Source: Sediminibacterium sp.
GTDB lineage: Bacteria > Bacteroidota > Bacteroidia > Chitinophagales > Chitinophagaceae
Assembly: GCA_965229255.1 (NCBI GenBank)
Contig: CBDDIX010000005.1
Span: 26,975 to 90,974, forward strand
Reading direction: 5' to 3'
DNA: 64,000 nt
In this document: positions 52,069 to 59,227 of the stretch, piece after piece
Numbering within the stretch: the stretch's first letter is position 1
Layout of the letters: each line of letters opens with the position of its first letter
Notes under the pieces: model-generated
Told to the model about the DNA's origin: nothing
What the model saw: the letters and a program-made list of their open reading frames with translations, nothing else
Database searches by the model: none
Translations under genes and position numbers: made by a program

Positions 52069-54087
52069 CTACCAGATCTTTATTCTCTGGCTCTCAGGTT
52101 TGTAATTCTTATCGCCGGGCTGTACATTAAATGCTTTATAAAAAGGATCAAAGTTCATCAATGGACCATTTACGCGCCAGGTAGCCGGCGAATGCGGGTT
52201 GGTGTTAACGTAGGTAAGCATAAACGCGTCCCTTGTTTTCACTCTCCAGATCCTGGCAATGGATAAAAAGAAACGTTGATCCGGAGTGAAGTCGTCAATC
52301 TTTTCAGAACCCTGTCCCTGCTTTGTTAATTTAAAGGCATCATAGGCAATCGCAATACCACCATTGTCTGCCGTGTTCTCGCCCAGGGTGAGACCACCCT
52401 TCACATGAACCGTATCTAAAACAGTGAAAGAACTATACAGGTCCACCACCATTTTTGTTTTCACTTTGAACTTGTCGTAGTCTTCTTTTGTCCACCAGTT
52501 TTTTACGTTCCCGTCTTTATCGTATTGCGCACCCTGGTCATCAAAAGCATGGGTCATCTCATGCCCGATCACCATCCCGATACCTCCATAGTTAATGGCG
52601 TCATCTGCGGCAAAATCAAAATAAGGGAACTGTAAAATACCGGCAGGAAATACAATCTCATTTAATGGGGGATTATAGTACGCGGTAACGGTAGATGGCG
52701 TTGCACCGAATTCAGTTCTGTCAACAGGTTTGTTCAGTTTTGCCAGTTGGTACTGGTATTGATTCCTGCCAAGTGCCAGTATGTTTTCAAAATATTTGTT
52801 TCTGTCGATGGGCACTTTATCGTAATTGCGCCAAACATCGGGGTAGCCTATTTTTTTGGTGATGGCATATAATTTTTCTTTTGCTTTTTGTTTAGTGCTG
52901 TCGCTCATCCAGTCAAGATGGTTGATCCTGTTTTCGAAAGCTTTTTGCAGGTTGTTCACCAATGCAAGCACACGTTTTTTTGCATCCTCATTAAAATATC
53001 TTTTTACATAGAGTTGTCCTAAAGCCTGACCTAAATAACCGTCCACATTTTGGGTCATGATCTGCCTGCGCGATTGCTTAACTGCCTGACCCGACATTAC
53101 TTTCGCAAATTCAAAAGACGCATCCGTAAATGGTTTACTAAGCGTTGCAGCATATGTTTTCAAAGTGGTCGCTTTCAGATAGGTCTTCCAGTCATTAACA
53201 GGAATGGAGCCTAGTAACTCATTTAACTTAGTATAGTAAGCTGGCTGACCCATATCAACAGAGTCGGTCTTAGCCCCGATGTTTACCAGCAGTGCAGACC
53301 AACCGATATTGGGTTGTGTTTGGTTAAGAGATGCAATGGATAATTTATTGTAGTTAGCTTTCACATCTCTCATCTCAATATTTGTTTTATGAGAAGCCGC
53401 AATCTGTTTTTCGAGATCGTAAACAGTCGTTGCATTTTTTTCTGCCATAGCCGCATCGCTGCCGGTTAATTCAAACAGGTTGCTGAGATATTTTTTATAA
53501 GCCTGCTGAATGCGAAGGGTAGATGGATCTGTTTTGAAATAATAATCCCGGTTTGGTAAGCCAAGCCCTGTTTGTGAAACATGGGCAATATTGATTTTGC
53601 TGTTCTTGTCATCTGGTGAAACACCAAAACTGATCATAGAGCGGTTACCAGCCTTTAGTTCACCCGCTACAAACTTGAGCAAAGAGGGAAGATCGCTGAT
53701 CGCATCAACCTGTTTTAATATGGGTAGGATGGGTTCATAACCACGCTTGTTGATAGTGATCGTGTCCATACCGGAAGCGTAGAAATCGCCCACTTTCTGT
53801 TCAATGGTTCCGGCAGTATGTTTACTTTTCGATACACTATCCAGTATATGTTGCAACAGTTCTTTCTGCGGAATATTCATAAACGAATAAGAGCCCACCC
53901 CTGATTGGTCATCGGCGATCTTTGCGGTATCATACCAACGCCCGTTCACATACCGGAAGAAATCATCGCCGGGTTTGATAGACGGATCAATGCCATGTAC
54001 ATCTACAAAGCCTTTTTTTGGGGCATCAAGATTATTCCATGCGAGGGATAGGAACATAAGGAAAGTGAGGGAAAGGTATTTCTTCAT
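52069..54087 (-). CDS. M13 family metalloendopeptidase (PepO/neprilysin-like)
   Basis: PGDDFFRYVNG, KIGYPD, TAYY, GHEMTHAFDDQG, GENTAD and HSP...RVNGPL. ATG 54087 gives a signal peptide. Confidence 0.92.
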   Translation of the reverse strand: MKKYLSLTFLMFLSLAWNNLDAPKKGFVDVHGIDPSIKPGDDFFRYVNGRWYDTAKIADDQSGVGSYSFMNIPQKELLQHILDSVSKSKHTAGTIEQKVGDFYASGMDTITINKRGYEPILPILKQVDAISDLPSLLKFVAGELKAGNRSMISFGVSPDDKNSKINIAHVSQTGLGLPNRDYYFKTDPSTLRIQQAYKKYLSNLFELTGSDAAMAEKNATTVYDLEKQIAASHKTNIEMRDVKANYNKLSIASLNQTQPNIGWSALLVNIGAKTDSVDMGQPAYYTKLNELLGSIPVNDWKTYLKATTLKTYAATLSKPFTDASFEFAKVMSGQAVKQSRRQIMTQNVDGYLGQALGQLYVKRYFNEDAKKRVLALVNNLQKAFENRINHLDWMSDSTKQKAKEKLYAITKKIGYPDVWRNYDKVPIDRNKYFENILALGRNQYQYQLAKLNKPVDRTEFGATPSTVTAYYNPPLNEIVFPAGILQFPYFDFAADDAINYGGIGMVIGHEMTHAFDDQGAQYDKDGNVKNWWTKEDYDKFKVKTKMVVDLYSSFTVLDTVHVKGGLTLGENTADNGGIAIAYDAFKLTKQGQGSEKIDDFTPDQRFFLSIARIWRVKTRDAFMLTYVNTNPHSPATWRVNGPLMNFDPFYKAFNVQPGDKNYKPESQRIKIW

Positions 54088-54174: not shown

Positions 54175-54825
54175 TTAATTTGTAAGCGTAACCTGACCGA
54201 TATAGGCAGTGGATGAGACACCAGTTTGATTCTCCGATACCAACAGTAACCAGCAGTGTACTGATTGGTTGGGAAAAACAGATACATCTACGGTTGCCAT
54301 TTCATCGCCGCGGGTGGCAATATCCTGGTAATAAATAAACTGCTTCTCTGCTTCGCAAAACACAACCACCGTGAGCTTGTCGGAGTTAAGGGCTCTTCCT
54401 ACACCGGGGTTCTTTGTCCATATGAACGTGATCTGCTGGTTGGCTTCAGCGGCTGCTAAAACGCTTCCTACATTCGGCATACTGCTATTGCCGCTGCTGA
54501 ACTGCAATTGGGTGATATCGATACTGAAAGGCGAAGTATCGCCTGCAATGGCCAGGCGGATGTTATGGGCCACCGCCGCATTAAGCCCCGATACAGAATT
54601 TGAGTAGCGTTTGAATGTAGTGCGGAACAGCTGAGAAAGACCTGCTAACAGGGTTACAATCCGTGTGAATTTTTCACGCTGGTCTGCCTGGGCAGGGCTA
54701 GGCTTTCTATTCTTTTTGATTGCAGGAAGCGAGCGCATAACCTGTTTGCCTTTCCAGGTACTGCCAATAACCCCTCCCGTTTTTCCTGCGAATCCTCCAA
54801 GGATCCCGTTGTTAAGAACTGACAT
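54175..54825 (-). CDS. DUF6266-family protein (unknown function)
   Basis: Characteristic N-terminus GILGGFAGKTGGVIGSTWKGKQVMRSLP...PSPAQADQREKF and a beta-rich C-terminus. Confidence 0.8.
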   Translation of the reverse strand: MSVLNNGILGGFAGKTGGVIGSTWKGKQVMRSLPAIKKNRKPSPAQADQREKFTRIVTLLAGLSQLFRTTFKRYSNSVSGLNAAVAHNIRLAIAGDTSPFSIDITQLQFSSGNSSMPNVGSVLAAAEANQQITFIWTKNPGVGRALNSDKLTVVVFCEAEKQFIYYQDIATRGDEMATVDVSVFPNQSVHCWLLLVSENQTGVSSTAYIGQVTLTN

Positions 54826-54904
54826 GATTTTTCGATTTAAAGTGTTTTACAATTTGGTTTTAGTGTTCATCTTCCAGCAGGTATCACCGGTGAATGAACA
54901 GGAA

Positions 54905-54912
54905 CAAAGCTA
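54905..54912 (-). promoter_or_regulatory. Bacteroidota -7 promoter element for DUF6266
   Basis: Minus-strand TAGCTTTG, 80 bp upstream of the ATG. Confidence 0.55.
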
Positions 54913-54931
54913 ATAGGAGCTTACATACGCA

Positions 54932-55136
54932 GGGGGTTGCAGGGGTTGCACAACCCCCGGTAACTGCTTGATAACCAGTCAGATGTTACAAAAAAAATGT
55001 TTGGATCAGGGAGCCGTTTTTAAACATTTTTTTTATTTAAAGATGTTGGTAATTGATTTATAAATGTTTATATATGGTGATAAATAAGAAAAATCACCTA
55101 GTTGCAACCCCCAGTAACTGATTGATAATAAGTTAC
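54932..55136. repeat. Origin-like repeat block: two 24-bp direct repeats, GGGGTTGCA units, AT-rich IR core
   Basis: CAACCCCCGGTAACTGCTTGATAA (54951-54974) vs CAACCCCCAGTAACTGATTGATAA (55105-55128), 22/24 identical. GGGGTTGCA occurs in tandem at 54933 and 54942. Perfect 13-bp IR at 54990-55002 / 55022-55034. Confidence 0.75.
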
Positions 55137-55251
55137 TTGTTCCAAAAAAAATGCTTGAATTTTCCTCTTTTATGCGTCATATGATTTTGGGTGCATCTGG
55201 CTCCTTTTTTCGCTCTTTCTTCGCTTCACAGCCTGTATTTCTTCTTATCAA

Positions 55252-55397
55252 AGCCTTATCAGCCTCGTTCATGGACGAAGAATGTTCTAGTGTGGACGAA
55301 GGATGTTCGTCCGTGGACGAAGAACGTTCGAGTGTGAGCGAAGAATGTTCGTCTGTGAATGAAGGGAGGAAGGAGGAATGATGGAGCTGATAAGGCT
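55252..55397. repeat. 21-bp tandem array (about 5 units) bracketed by a perfect 12-bp inverted repeat
   Basis: Units start at 55265, 55286, 55307, 55328 and 55349 (consensus TCGnnnGTGGACGAAGAATGT). IR AGCCTTATCAGC (55252-55263) / GCTGATAAGGCT (55386-55397). Confidence 0.85.
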
Positions 55398-55429
55398 GTG
55401 ATATGGGGGTGGTAGGGAGCGCGAAGAAA

Positions 55430-56386
55430 TTACAATCGATGTAATTGCGAATGAAGTCTTTCAAGCAACTCCTCAAAGGGCGGTTGCCCATTATAATACA
55501 AGGCAGACGTTGCTTCATAACGCACCTTAAATTGTTCCTTTAATGTAGAATCACTCAGTAAAAATGCTTGGTTTTCCTGGATAGGAATGTCTAGGTCTTT
55601 TTTAAACTTTACAATCTTGTATTCCTCATATTCTTTTGTGCCGATAAACGTCAATACTCTTTCAATATTGAGGAGTGAGTAAACATCATAGTATTGACGC
55701 ATCAAATTCGGCTTCTCACCTTTTTTCTCAACTTGCTCCTGTCTAAACATCCTGGCAATTGTCTGCAGTTTTTCTACAAAAGTGTACCCGGGATCATAGC
55801 ATGCGATATCGATAGCTCTATTGTCTACTATTTGAATCGAATCAATAGATATAGCTTTTTCGTAAGCCCATGAACTAATCGTTTTTCTTTCAAAAGGAGT
55901 CACCTTGTCAAAACCGGCTTCCAGCAGGATTCCATCTTTAATACCAGTAACCGTGTCAAACAGACTATTGTAATGAAGGCGTATGCCCCCACTAAAATAA
56001 TACCTGGTATCATCAAAAGAGGTATCCCTGGCTAAGGAAATAATTCCATCGATCTTAATGTTGTTTACCAGGAAATCATAAAACTCATTTCTGCCCTTGA
56101 TTTGGTTTTCTTTTAGTTTGTTGCGCTCCTCTGCAACCCCCATTGCAGGTGGAGGCGTTATATGAATATCAATATCCTCCGAAAAACGATGGATGATCCC
56201 ATAGCCTTTCGACAGGGATGTACCTCCTTTCAATTCAAAGGCGTAGCCACCTTTTGTAAGGCCGTATAATACATGCATGATCCAATAGTCCTTCTCAACC
56301 AATACCGGCAGAATATTTTTTTCCTCAGCCACAATCTGCAGCAGTGCTTTGAATTCCGGGTGTTCATGAAGATATGCAGCAGGCAT
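55430..56386 (-). CDS. AbiEii/AbiGii nucleotidyltransferase toxin (type IV TA)
   Basis: LVEKDYW, FELKGGTSL, HRFSEDIDI, TFVEKL and RQYYDVY. ATG 56386 is preferred over TTG 56419. Confidence 0.9.
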   Translation of the reverse strand: MPAAYLHEHPEFKALLQIVAEEKNILPVLVEKDYWIMHVLYGLTKGGYAFELKGGTSLSKGYGIIHRFSEDIDIHITPPPAMGVAEERNKLKENQIKGRNEFYDFLVNNIKIDGIISLARDTSFDDTRYYFSGGIRLHYNSLFDTVTGIKDGILLEAGFDKVTPFERKTISSWAYEKAISIDSIQIVDNRAIDIACYDPGYTFVEKLQTIARMFRQEQVEKKGEKPNLMRQYYDVYSLLNIERVLTFIGTKEYEEYKIVKFKKDLDIPIQENQAFLLSDSTLKEQFKVRYEATSALYYNGQPPFEELLERLHSQLHRL

Positions 56387-56402
56387 TGTTGCTAATTGTG
56401 TT

Positions 56403-56972
56403 TTATAAGTATTGGGCAAATAATTTCCTGGCTTTTACACCACCGTATTCTGAAACCGCATGTGCCAGCTTCTTCCTATTCATAGACATCGCCTTGGCAG
56501 GAAGGTTATTCAACACCAGGCTTTTATCTTCAGCCAGTGAGTTCAGGTTATTCACCATATCCACTATCAAAAATTCCGGCGACACCTTTTTCGGAAAATG
56601 AGGCTTTATCCTGAAATTGAATGTCCGGTTCCCAAGTTTGAATTCGCCATGGCGTTTATGGTTGTAAACAACACGGCTATTATACAGCTGGGTAGTGCCA
56701 AGCCCCAGGCTGTTATAGGAATTCGGGGAGGTGAGTAGGAACCTGTCATCTTTCAGGAAACTGCGTACCAATGCCTCATCTTCTGGCGGTGCCGCCCCGA
56801 AAGCCGTCATTCTTGGATAATAGTACACCCCCTGGGAAAGTTTCTGCAAAGTGCCTTCCTGCACAAGCTCTTCCAGGTGCCGGTCAACAGAAGTGGACCA
56901 TTGCGTAAGATCTTCCCGGCGATACACATTACCCTGTTTCAGGTGTTTTTTTAGTTTATCCAGTTTCGACAT
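56403..56972 (-). CDS. AbiEi-like antitoxin (wHTH N-domain)
   Basis: VDRHLEELVQEGTLQKLSQGVYYYP wHTH, NSLGLGTTQ; directly upstream of the AbiEii gene. Confidence 0.8.
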   Translation of the reverse strand: MSKLDKLKKHLKQGNVYRREDLTQWSTSVDRHLEELVQEGTLQKLSQGVYYYPRMTAFGAAPPEDEALVRSFLKDDRFLLTSPNSYNSLGLGTTQLYNSRVVYNHKRHGEFKLGNRTFNFRIKPHFPKKVSPEFLIVDMVNNLNSLAEDKSLVLNNLPAKAMSMNRKKLAHAVSEYGGVKARKLFAQYL

Positions 56973-57207
56973 ATAAAAATTCTACATAAAGGTAGGGAAA
57001 GTAGATAAAATGAATAGTTATTTATTTAAAATTCATGCAAAATGAAGAAAATTTTACTTGTAATTGCTTTGAAACCTTTATTGGGGAGTAGGGGCAAATA
57101 GAGTTGGCAGAACTTGTACCAAATCTTGGCACAACACCTACTAGTAAATCGGACAAACTGGATTTATGCAATCGGATTTTGCGCGCATGAGGTTAAACCA
57201 AGTTAGG

Positions 57208-58275
57208 CTAATGTTCTTCTGAATAGCCTAACAACTCCGTCTGTATTATTCGTAATCGCTCTTTGATATTTGCAACATCATTCGTGCCATGTTGAGTTAG
57301 CCTATCGTATTCTAGCAAATCATAATCTGCATTTTCATAAGATGTTTCCGCAATAGTTCTATTGGTTTTAACTTTTTCTGTAAAAGCCAATAACGATGAT
57401 CTTGAAATACTATGACCACCTTTGGATGCATTTTTAAAAAGTAGATAGAAAACCACAATATTACCCTGTGCTCTAAGAAGATTGTCTGCAAGCACAAAAC
57501 AACGATCCATGGTATTCAGAACGGATTTTACAATTGTGCTTACATTATTAACTACAGTAATGTTTCCCGTTTTATATTTTTTAGCCATTGAATCCAGGTA
57601 CACTTTTTTTGTATCAATAAGTTTACCATATTCTATTTTCGAAATTTCAACTAATAGAAGTCGAGCGGCAACCTCGTAATGTTGATATCTATTATTCGCA
57701 AATTTCACTTTAGTAAAAAAAGAATGATTAGAAAGTTTTCGAATCTCGCTAACCATATCCCCACCAAATGCATTTCTTTTTTCAGCAGAATTTAACGGAG
57801 CAGCTTCATTCAATCGAGAAAACATATCCTCAATCAAATCCAAATCGTCAGTTTGGACACCAACAATCGGCAAAACAAACGAATCAAATTTGATCTTAAT
57901 TTTCGGATATTCCTTCGATAAATCGTCATAGCTTAATCCGCAAAGTTTCAAATGAGGATCATCTTGATACTCGAAATCATCTGAAAGACAAAACTTGCCA
58001 TCAACGAATGCCCATATGGTTTCTAGTCGTTGTTTGCCGTCAATAATTGCGTAAGACTTTCCTGTCTTTTGTTTTTCTATTCTATCAAACTGATGAAAAT
58101 ATATTTTTGGAATGTCATAGTTATTTAAAATAGAATCAATAAGCAACTGTTTTTTTTCGGGTGTCCAAATTCCTCCGTTACGCTGATATTCAGGATCAAC
58201 AATAATTTCATCCTTTTCAGAGTAAACTCTGAGAATTGTAGCATGTTGAACGGGGTTGGTTTCTATATAACTCAT
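57208..58275 (-). CDS. DUF262 (ParB/GmrS-like) domain protein, no HNH domain apparent
   Basis: PEYQRNGGIW...LLIDSILNNYDIPKIYF, IIDGKQRLETI and MFSRLNEAAPLNSAEKRNA. Confidence 0.88.
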   Translation of the reverse strand: MSYIETNPVQHATILRVYSEKDEIIVDPEYQRNGGIWTPEKKQLLIDSILNNYDIPKIYFHQFDRIEKQKTGKSYAIIDGKQRLETIWAFVDGKFCLSDDFEYQDDPHLKLCGLSYDDLSKEYPKIKIKFDSFVLPIVGVQTDDLDLIEDMFSRLNEAAPLNSAEKRNAFGGDMVSEIRKLSNHSFFTKVKFANNRYQHYEVAARLLLVEISKIEYGKLIDTKKVYLDSMAKKYKTGNITVVNNVSTIVKSVLNTMDRCFVLADNLLRAQGNIVVFYLLFKNASKGGHSISRSSLLAFTEKVKTNRTIAETSYENADYDLLEYDRLTQHGTNDVANIKERLRIIQTELLGYSEEH

Positions 58276-59006
58276 TTGTAATGTCCTTTTAGTATTTCGC
58301 CTATGCTTGATAATTCCGGGAACAATGTGAACTTACTGATCCCTAATAACTTTAATTCTTTTCTTATCTCTTCTTTACAATTTTGGGGGATAAGATATTT
58401 TACAACTTCATTTGAATTGCAAAAATCTTCAATAGGTCTAACATCTAAATGATGTATCGTGAAAACTCCTAATTGAGCTTGTATTCTTGAATTATTTCTA
58501 GTGGCAATGGTAGCTAAAGGTGTTAATTTATTTCTTGGATTTTGGTTTAACACTTCAACTGAATAGCTTTTAAGCTCCAGATCATCAAAACAAAGGATGA
58601 AATTCTTTTCACCAACACTAATGCCGGCAATTTTATTTAGCTCAGTTGGTTTTAACGACCACAATGCCGCATCATTTGCTTCAGTTGCCACATCTGATAC
58701 TGCAAAATAGAGGGCAGTTAAAGGGCTTTCCGTCCAATCCAATAACCTAGTAGGTACCCCATAATGTTGCATAAGAAACATCCAGTCGAAATCATCTTTA
58801 GGGTGTCTATCTAACAGCATTCCAGCAGATTGCTTAAATCGAGTCAAAAAACTCCCCTCTGATGGTCCTCCGGTTGTGCGTAAGAGCCCAGGTGATAAGG
58901 TCCAAGTAAATTCTCCCTGCCCTCTATACCAAATATCACCATCGTATGCAGAATTATCCGTCTTCAATATTTCAATTAAATCACTAACGCTTTTTATTTC
59001 TTTCAT
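58272..59006 (-). CDS. FRG-domain protein
   Basis: IWYRGQG...LSPGLLR, MQHYGVPTRLLDWTESPLTALYFA and NSRIQAQLGVFTIH. ATGA overlap with the DUF262 gene. Confidence 0.92.
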   Translation of the reverse strand: MKEIKSVSDLIEILKTDNSAYDGDIWYRGQGEFTWTLSPGLLRTTGGPSEGSFLTRFKQSAGMLLDRHPKDDFDWMFLMQHYGVPTRLLDWTESPLTALYFAVSDVATEANDAALWSLKPTELNKIAGISVGEKNFILCFDDLELKSYSVEVLNQNPRNKLTPLATIATRNNSRIQAQLGVFTIHHLDVRPIEDFCNSNEVVKYLIPQNCKEEIRKELKLLGISKFTLFPELSSIGEILKGHYK

Positions 59007-59120
59007 GATAGCTGTGACAAAGATTGTCTTTTAATGAAGGGGGAGGGAGCTAAGATATAAATATATAATAAGAAACACGAATGTGGGATCGATCTGCACA
59101 ATAATCAAGGAGATAAAGCA

Positions 59121-59153
59121 GAAATAAAACAACCCTTGCGGAGCAAGGGTTGT
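59121..59153 (-). terminator. Intrinsic terminator of tRNA-Glu
   Basis: Minus strand ACAACCCTTGC-TCC-GCAAGGGTTGT (11-bp perfect stem), followed by TTTATTTC. Confidence 0.85.
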
Positions 59154-59155
59154 AG

Positions 59156-59227
59156 TAGCCGGTACGGGAATCGAACCCGTCTTTGCCCCGTGAAAGGGGG
59201 CTGTCCTAACCGATAGACGAACCGGCC
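59156..59227 (-). tRNA. tRNA-Glu (anticodon TTC), CCA not encoded
   Basis: 72-nt cloverleaf: acceptor GGCCGGT/ACCGGCT, anticodon arm GCCCC-CTTTCAC-GGGGC, T arm ACGGG-TTCGATT-CCCGT. Confidence 0.97.

Follow-up and report, generated by a model that had tools for sequence, protein, structure and literature searches.

A phased TTCG/CGAA palindrome array upstream of Bacteroidota DUF6266 genes, most likely a DNA-level control site

Plasmid centromere and operator arrays are bound by small repressors; the 11-base-pair (bp) iterons of R1 parC are bound by ParR, and the repeats of the pSM19035 omega system are heptads. Pho-box sites and sites of OmpR-family response regulators are likewise known as short direct repeats, with a period of 11 bp. 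Here we describe an array of five 21-bp units in a stretch of 64,000 nucleotides (nt) from Sediminibacterium sp. (contig CBDDIX010000005.1, positions 26,975 to 90,974), hereafter called the window, in whose numbering coordinates are given. The array (55265-55369) is enclosed by an inverted repeat (55246-55263 / 55386-55403) and is located upstream of an intact gene of the DUF6266 family, to which it is linked (54175..54825, minus strand, 216 amino acids). Phased TTCG/CGAA palindrome arrays upstream of Bacteroidota DUF6266 genes are an undescribed element, most likely a DNA-level control site. For the window array the reading adopted here, with a little less than even confidence, is that of a helically phased DNA site, an operator or a nucleoprotein site, which would be specific to the cassette and serve the DUF6266 promoter. 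The window would hold a degenerate and displaced copy of it.

The arrays have several traits in common with R1 parC and the omega sites: they stand upstream of a promoter, consist of many short repeats with a phase of one helical turn, are specific to their cassette and turn over rapidly in sequence. As in the omega system, the repeats occur in both orientations. Unlike these systems, the window array is accompanied by no ParR-, ParM- or omega-like gene, the repeat sets of DUF6266 loci converge into a palindrome, and they stand 130-350 bp from the promoter and not over it; the binding of a protein is a prediction. With Pho-box and OmpR-type sites the arrays share the exact 11-bp period, a short conserved core with a variable spacer, and tandem units. 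They differ in that their motif is absent from 1.5 megabases (Mb) of other Bacteroidota DNA, and so is not regulon-wide, in that orientation switches within an array, and in carrying up to about nine units per arm. The five dyad units at 21 bp in the window, with an AT-rich stretch nearby in this copy only, also recall the iterons of lambda and plasmid origins (dyads of ~19-22 bp). These origins differ from the present case, in which no initiator gene is present, the AT-rich stretch belongs to a window-specific insertion, and the form typical of the family is an 11-nt repeat near a promoter.

The array, its inverted repeat and the paralogous copy

The window array is real and non-random. Tandem Repeats Finder scored it best at period 42 (55265-55364, 2.4 copies, 82% matches, score 130) and also reported period 21 (55272-55351, 3.8 copies, score 104; 55275-55364, 4.3 copies), and the repeat search yielded four overlapping 42-nt copies spaced 21 nt apart. 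The five 21-bp units and the 42-bp period of the original prediction, which had been made from the sequence alone, are thereby confirmed. Each unit is a decayed TTCG-N8-CGAA palindrome followed by a 5-nt spacer, with the full core retained by units 3 and 4 only. The 16-nt unit core GGACGAAGAATGTTCG has four matches at up to three mismatches, all within the array, with 0.32 expected from shuffles. The predicted 7-bp stem GGACGAA/TTCGTCC is present at 55294-55312. The perfect 12-bp inverted repeat also stood (55252-55263 / 55386-55397); it is nested in a repeat of 18 nt with one mismatch (94% complementary), which encloses 122 bp. The arm on the DUF6266 side (55246..55263) is separated from unit 1 by one base, not by the 2 bp given earlier. 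Unit 5 is followed by 16 purine-rich nt (55370-55385) before the distal arm (55386..55403) begins. These nt are part of a purine-rich block (55362..55385, of CTCCTCC type on the minus strand), which corresponds to a distal-side pyrimidine block conserved at loci L082, L083, L088, L091 and L134. Further out, a half-site CGAAGAA (55422..55428) lies within 1-2 nt of the stop codon of abiEii and has TTTCTTCG (55216-55223) as its pairing partner. The latter lies in a stretch of two 11-nt-phased half-sites, AGCGAAGAAAG and AGCGAAAAAAG (55204..55225, minus strand), which are the CGAAGAA repeat typical of the family and were detected at period 11 by Tandem Repeats Finder.

A homology search with the DUF6266 protein identified a 73%-identical paralogue on another contig of the same assembly (locus L082). 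Upstream of it is a homologous 21-bp tandem array of 4.9 copies (L082:5611-5712), flanked by a homologous inverted repeat, in which the proximal arm is conserved. The two loci can be aligned from ~40 nt outside the distal arm (~55440 in the window) as far as the stop codon of DUF6266, a span that includes the array and ~330 nt of leader. Outside the distal arm identity is low; from this arm inward it is high. The 307-nt upstream stretch with the array is 74% identical and the proximal leader with the gene 81%, and 245 aligned nt that include the array contain no indel. The palindrome TTCG-N8-CGAA is kept in two of the five window units versus four in L082. An insertion of 154 bp (55008..55161), which is a gap in L082, is specific to the window; it is made up of AT-rich DNA and a partly duplicated leader block (55105-55160), and it moves the array 154 bp further from the promoter. 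The original copy of the leader block, with a T-run, TTATCAA and GTTAC, is conserved (54951..55006). In a more distant homologue (L083-L087, 47% identical), a single TTCTTCG-N8-CGAAGAA palindrome occupies the corresponding place and is followed by GAAAGGGCGAAG, as in the window. A separate observation concerns the start of DUF6266, which is exactly common to the window and the paralogue over a 46-nt unitig (54770-54815); this unitig had twice the depth of its flanks in assemblies X3, X4 and X5.

On its distal side the array adjoins an AbiE module, with the genes of an AbiEii toxin, a nucleotidyltransferase by Pfam and PADLOC (55430-56386, minus strand), and of an AbiEi-like antitoxin (56403-56972, minus strand). 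The AbiEii gene at L082 is 3.5 kilobases (kb) away and essentially unrelated to that of the window, and the abiE promoter region (56973-57207) is free of the TTCG/CGAA motif. Array and AbiE module are thus neighbours only by co-location in a defence island. Judged by homology, the array belongs to the downstream DUF6266 gene and not to AbiE. The comparison with the AbiEi operator, a set of inverted repeats in the abiE promoter, leads to the same assignment: the array is dyad-symmetric and lies beside an AbiE module, but it is found downstream of abiEii and not upstream of abiEi, the abiE promoter lacks its motif, and it travels with DUF6266.

The original prediction had found no annotated feature at the array. 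This was true in part, as the gene caller had called an open reading frame (ORF) of 76 codons over it on the public contig (ORF76, 55151..55381, plus strand). A small protein with acidic S-S-V-D-E-E-C heptad repeats could be encoded by this frame (the last of the options raised earlier was the remains of a heptad-repeat peptide gene), which is open and in which the unit differences AGT/TCC/TCT all specify serine and CGT/AGG both arginine. ORF76 has no Pfam match, and a search of 5.8 billion proteins retrieved only ORF76 itself. Its start codon lies inside the window-specific insertion; the L082 counterpart reads TTG at this position and is interrupted by an in-frame TGA. Over 250 aligned bases of the two loci (185 identical), the differences are spread evenly across codon positions in all six frames (20/23/22 in the ORF76 frame), and the synonymous share of differing codons never exceeds a quarter (8 synonymous and 36 non-synonymous in the ORF76 frame). 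A frame on the minus strand is also open across the array in both copies (ORF113 at 55177-55518 in the window, where it overlaps the 3' end of abiEii, and 105 codons at L082:5531-5848), with 11 synonymous and 35 non-synonymous differing codons and no codon-position bias. The open frames are a side-effect of the stop-free repeat unit. The 11-nt period seen elsewhere in the family is not a multiple of 3 and therefore also argues against coding. A peptide gene is thus extremely improbable, and on these comparisons ORF76 is judged spurious.

The region was identical in four DNA assemblies from three samples, without indel or rearrangement and with the array in one orientation; contigs hide minor variants, so that a single orientation in four assemblies says nothing on rare inversions. 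A unitig of 15 kb crosses the array unbroken, and therefore no other near-identical copy of the array is present. The inverted-repeat word has no second occurrence in the 64-kb window, so the copy-number check proposed with the original prediction returned a single copy there and, at L082, a diverged one. These data bear on the proposal that the segment is an invertible switch or an element like a miniature inverted-repeat transposable element (MITE). The near-perfect 18-nt inverted repeat around 122 bp is what such an element would have, and Bacteroides invertible promoters (Mpi/Tsr) are similar in having inverted repeats around a segment of ~120-160 bp in a Bacteroidota genome. Unlike those promoters, the segment contains no promoter box TAnnTTTG, no recombinase is encoded within the island, and the same orientation was seen in all four assemblies and in the paralogue. 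No target-site duplication is visible, a two-unit DNA pattern had no match in IMG/VR and the JGI metagenomes, and the only other copy is the diverged one at the same position upstream of the DUF6266 paralogue. The switch or MITE-like element can hardly be maintained.

Helically phased repeats and the DUF6266 promoter

The survey of the family covered 81 DUF6266 loci, 80 of them metagenomic and one viral, with proteins 30-40% identical to that of the window; the control DNA was 1.53 Mb of other Bacteroidota loci. Within 900 nt upstream of the gene, Tandem Repeats Finder detected a period of 10-11, or of 20-22 and 30-33, in most of the loci, and repeats of period 10-11 are enriched 100-450 nt upstream of the start codon. 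Between consecutive TTCG or CGAA cores of the same orientation, the spacing is 11 nt in 91 cases and 21-22 nt in 32, with at most five cases for any other nearby value. A motif-free autocorrelation of the interval -450 to -100 peaked at lags 10, 11, 20 and 22; further upstream than -450 it displayed the period 3 of coding DNA. Three phased CGAA cores were hit 41 times in 19 of the DUF6266 loci versus zero times in the controls. The density of helically phased tandem repeats over the 500 nt before DUF6266 is 136 per 100 kb, about 40 times that of the controls (3.3 per 100 kb).

Across the family, short repeats with a phase of one helical turn occupy the interval ~200-450 nt before the start codon, and the arrays fall into two main classes. 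In class (i), both sides of the array have an 11-nt period, with CTTCG-type units distally and CGAAG-type units proximally (e.g., L088, L091, L093, L114, L120 and L128). Together they form a palindrome of up to ~9 units per arm, with the unit consensus yCCGAAGAAnnC (147 units, 32 loci). At least ten DUF6266 clades have arrays of the TTCG/CGAA class, which is present in all members of the three clades nearest the window. Class (ii), from another DUF6266 clade, consists of 8-13 copies of a 10-nt unit like GTCAATAG, placed 65-190 nt upstream of the start (L138, L155, L133). The alternating 21-nt layout TTCG-N8-CGAA-N5, seen in the window and L082 alone, looks like an ancestral palindrome amplified in tandem. 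In this lineage the half-sites appear, from their sequence, to have been rearranged into a head-to-tail series of five 21-bp dyads, which an inverted repeat of 18-20 bp encloses. Other types of array were also observed upstream of DUF6266, namely TATCCCAACAA in five copies, TTTGTCCAGTA in eleven and CCAATTCCT in eight; together with class (ii), these types come from L138, L155, L133, L157, L163, L106 and L151. At L102, positions 116-678 of the upstream 900 nt are a 99-nt tandem repeat of 5.7 copies (score 804).

The promoter of the window gene has a Bacteroidetes-type -7 box, TAGCTTTG (54905..54912, minus strand), with 79 nt between box and ATG. Among the 81 loci the box TAnnTTTG is sharply concentrated 60-100 nt before the DUF6266 ATG; it is exact in 27 of them, with a background of at most two per 20-nt bin. 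The arrays are located upstream of this box, which thus sits between array and gene; neither strand has a -7-like box beside the arrays. Between the proximal array end and the DUF6266 ATG there are 160-300 nt irrespective of the upstream neighbour (a conserved protein of ~370 amino acids in the same orientation, a divergent HTH_17 gene, and others were tested). In the window the array ends 371 nt from the ATG, which equals 217 nt plus the 154-bp insertion, and it is because of this insertion that the array lies 353 bp from the -7 box.

Just upstream of the box is a second conserved element, a palindrome GGGGTTG..CAACCCC with the 9-nt tandem TGCAACCCC (54933..54958). The palindrome covaries among loci (GGGGTGG/CCACCCC and GGTTGCG/CGCAACC; L088, L091, L093, L094) and may be a second regulatory site or a hairpin. 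A sigma-54 reading of GGGGTTG..TGCAACCCC was dropped, given that the GG of the -24 box is missing in the window and in L082 and that the element covaries as a palindrome. On the other side of the box, the 5' leader of DUF6266 (~70 nt; window 54840-54900, minus strand) contains a conserved CACCGGTG palindrome. A leader hairpin CCTG-CTGCAG-CAGG was seen in L082, L088, L091 and L093 and is partly lost in the window.

Folding, and the readings of the array

The array folds with z of about -7 on both strands relative to dinucleotide shuffles. The preference of folding energy for one strand is inconsistent among loci, with the sense strand more stable at 12 and the antisense strand at 23. A function in double-stranded DNA is therefore favoured, in view of the absence of a strand preference and of a flanking -7 box, the position upstream of the promoter and the helical phasing. 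As an operator or nucleoprotein site, the array would act as double-stranded DNA and offer several sites on one face of the helix, either as a multi-site operator or as a nucleoprotein platform. A putative oligomerising protein would bind them cooperatively, and the occupied array would set the activity of the sigma-A-type DUF6266 promoter 130-350 bp downstream. Both the binding of a protein and the regulatory effect are what we infer from the layout. The option of an operator or iteron array at two helical turns per unit has survived best among those offered by the original prediction. Two parts of it were amended: the owner is DUF6266 and not AbiE or AbiEi, and the 21-bp form is probably a lineage-specific rearrangement of an 11-nt-phased array. 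As a bolder and rather doubtful extension, the TTCG/CGAA palindromes and the other phased arrays might be a new class of cassette-specific nucleoprotein or cruciform 'lock'. It would silence a widespread Bacteroidota module, namely DUF6266, often with a lysin-like DUF5675 protein and a holin behind it and frequently located in defence islands, until a trigger such as phage infection, with DUF6266 or a partner reading the array.

Several findings weigh against the operator. A distance of 130-350 bp between array and promoter is rather long for a simple operator. The TTCG/CGAA type was found in only 32 of the 81 loci, with other repeats in other clades. No gene with a helix-turn-helix or ribbon-helix-helix domain is consistently linked to the arrays across loci, and the presence of HTH_17 genes does not correlate with that of TTCG/CGAA arrays. 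DUF6266 itself was considered as the binder and gained no support: by AlphaFold and Foldseek it has no recognised DNA-binding fold, and a sequence search of the PDB added nothing in its favour. The bacterium seems to accompany a larger host organism in the source assembly. Three host-labelled RNA-seq runs gave zero reads on the whole stretch, four raw DNA runs gave zero reads from the organism, and for locus L093 no RNA runs are listed. Arm complementarity exceeds that of core-preserving shuffles in 12 of 20 loci (median z -3.8), which fits a hairpin or cruciform as well. The window copy in addition looks degraded, with three of its five units lacking a core, the long-range pairing largely lost and the array displaced by 154 bp, and it may no longer be functional.

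The complementarity of the arms brings in a serious rival of the DNA operator, which we nevertheless hold to be unlikely, namely a hairpin or cruciform with a structural role where the cassette begins on its 5' side. Folded as RNA or extruded in DNA, it would act as a transcriptional insulator or terminator or as a 3'-end stabiliser and protect a DUF6266(-lysin-holin) module, which may be harmful, against read-through. In the window the read-through would come from abiEii, whose stop codon is separated by 1-2 nt from the outer stem. For the L082 copy a single hairpin of ~100 bp was predicted (-125.6 kcal/mol over 251 nt), perfect central palindromes of 13-20 bp are present in L088, L093 and L120, and strong homology starts at the distal palindrome arm, near the cassette boundary. 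Mapped on L082, the window structure is largely retained, with 36 pairs unchanged, five changed on both sides and four broken. Mapped on the window, the L082 structure has 19 of its 60 pairs broken and only two compensatory changes. No U-tract follows the array hairpin. The upstream neighbour is divergent in many loci, so sense transcription through the array is inconsistent, and no strand asymmetry was seen. The exact 11-nt phasing and the conserved TTCG cores would be needless for a plain hairpin.

The state of the window copy is also compatible with a functionless relic, in which slippage and palindrome amplification of a single ancestral palindrome produced an array that is now decaying. 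We consider this improbable for the window copy. The loss of cores relative to L082, a z of just -1.2 in the core-preserving shuffle test, the displacement by the 154-bp insertion and a DUF6266 gene without DUF5675 and holin partners are all in its favour. It is opposed by the intact DUF6266 reading frame, -7 box and inverted repeat, by the lack of indels over 245 aligned nt at 74% identity, and by the family-wide conservation of the element, which argues for function.

A structured noncoding RNA across the array, a repeat antitoxin or decoy of the kind known from type III toxin-antitoxin systems, had been proposed as an AbiE-linked element and could be imagined to act on AbiEii or on DUF6266. 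Like ToxI, CptI and TenpI, the array is a tandem repeat that precedes a protein gene among phage-defence genes, and its predicted folding is strong. It is unlike them in its period of 11 or 21 nt instead of direct repeats of 34-38 nt, in units that alternate or converge in orientation, in the promoter that intervenes between array and gene, and in the absence of an endoribonuclease toxin, since no RNase of the ToxN/AbiQ type was detected among the neighbours by Pfam, PADLOC or fold. Rfam 15, searched with the array at permissive and gathering thresholds, gave a best score of 16.9 bits, for a microRNA model with a threshold of 55. No promoter flanks the array, no strand bias was seen and, as set out above, the homology ends at the DUF6266 stop and the AbiEii proteins are unrelated, so that the element is not linked to AbiE. 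Such an RNA is therefore very unlikely, more so than the relic.

Genomic setting, the DUF6266 protein and its cassette

The genes that flank the array are all on the minus strand. Beyond the AbiE module lie a DUF262/GmrSD_N protein, NsnA-like (57208-58275, minus strand), an FRG protein, which is PADLOC candidate PDC-S15 (58272-59006, minus strand), and tRNA-Glu(TTC) (59155-59227, minus strand), which has a terminator hairpin and is the sole gathering-level Rfam match in the window. On the other side of DUF6266 is an M13 peptidase (52069-54087, minus strand). The closest genomes are those of Chitinophagaceae and of Sediminibacterium-like metagenome-assembled genomes, with peptidase identities of 83-88%. 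In two of these relatives (L004 and L009) synteny is kept, and the interval from the glyceraldehyde-3-phosphate dehydrogenase (GAPDH) gene to the M13 peptidase contains different cargo, e.g., a secreted protein of 1058 amino acids. The different DNA in the two relatives points to the stretch from FRG to DUF6266 (54175-59150, ~5 kb) as a variable islet beside the tRNA gene. Since the interval from tRNA-Glu/GAPDH to the peptidase is variable, the relatives have no orthologous array. No integrase is encoded in the islet. One 47-nt contig piece from a soil metatranscriptome matched the GAPDH gene, outside the array.

DUF6266 comprises ~6,100 clusters at 50% identity in a library of 1.8 billion proteins. 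No mention of it was found in the searchable literature, and in species-representative genomes no relative was confirmed. In the AlphaFold model (predicted local distance difference test score 78), an N-terminal arm that is basic, disordered and highly conserved is joined to two helices and an FN3-like sandwich; the Foldseek matches of this model were limited to generic FN3 and phage tail proteins. Downstream of DUF6266, many loci carry DUF5675 or a gene for a holin-family or small membrane protein (L082:6820-7682, L083, L088-L094, L142, L166, L168). DUF5675 has been proposed to be a C82-like peptidase lysin (2026 preprint, 10.64898/2026.04.11.717860). The combination of DUF6266, DUF5675 and holin-like genes suggests a lysis-type cassette; the window DUF6266 gene stands alone. 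Neither DUF6266 nor DUF5675 is listed in the PADLOC library.

Other genes recur beside DUF6266. HTH_17 genes (excisionase/MerR-like, ~95-120 amino acids) were observed in more than a dozen loci, divergent upstream or convergent downstream (e.g., L114, L113, L120, L122, L134, L138 and L157). The conserved protein of ~370 amino acids, which has no Pfam match and 26% identity between clades, precedes array and DUF6266 in the nearest clades (L088:2399-3493, L093:2457-3554, L083:4551-5684) and is absent from the window and L082.

For annotation, the false small-protein call ORF76 is removed, and the array is not to be assigned to the AbiE toxin-antitoxin pair. The DUF6266 family is large and of no known function, and its genes are often found beside lysin- or holin-like genes and in defence islands. 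A specific, phased cis-element upstream of its genes provides an experimental handle on the control of the DUF6266 cassette and on its binder.

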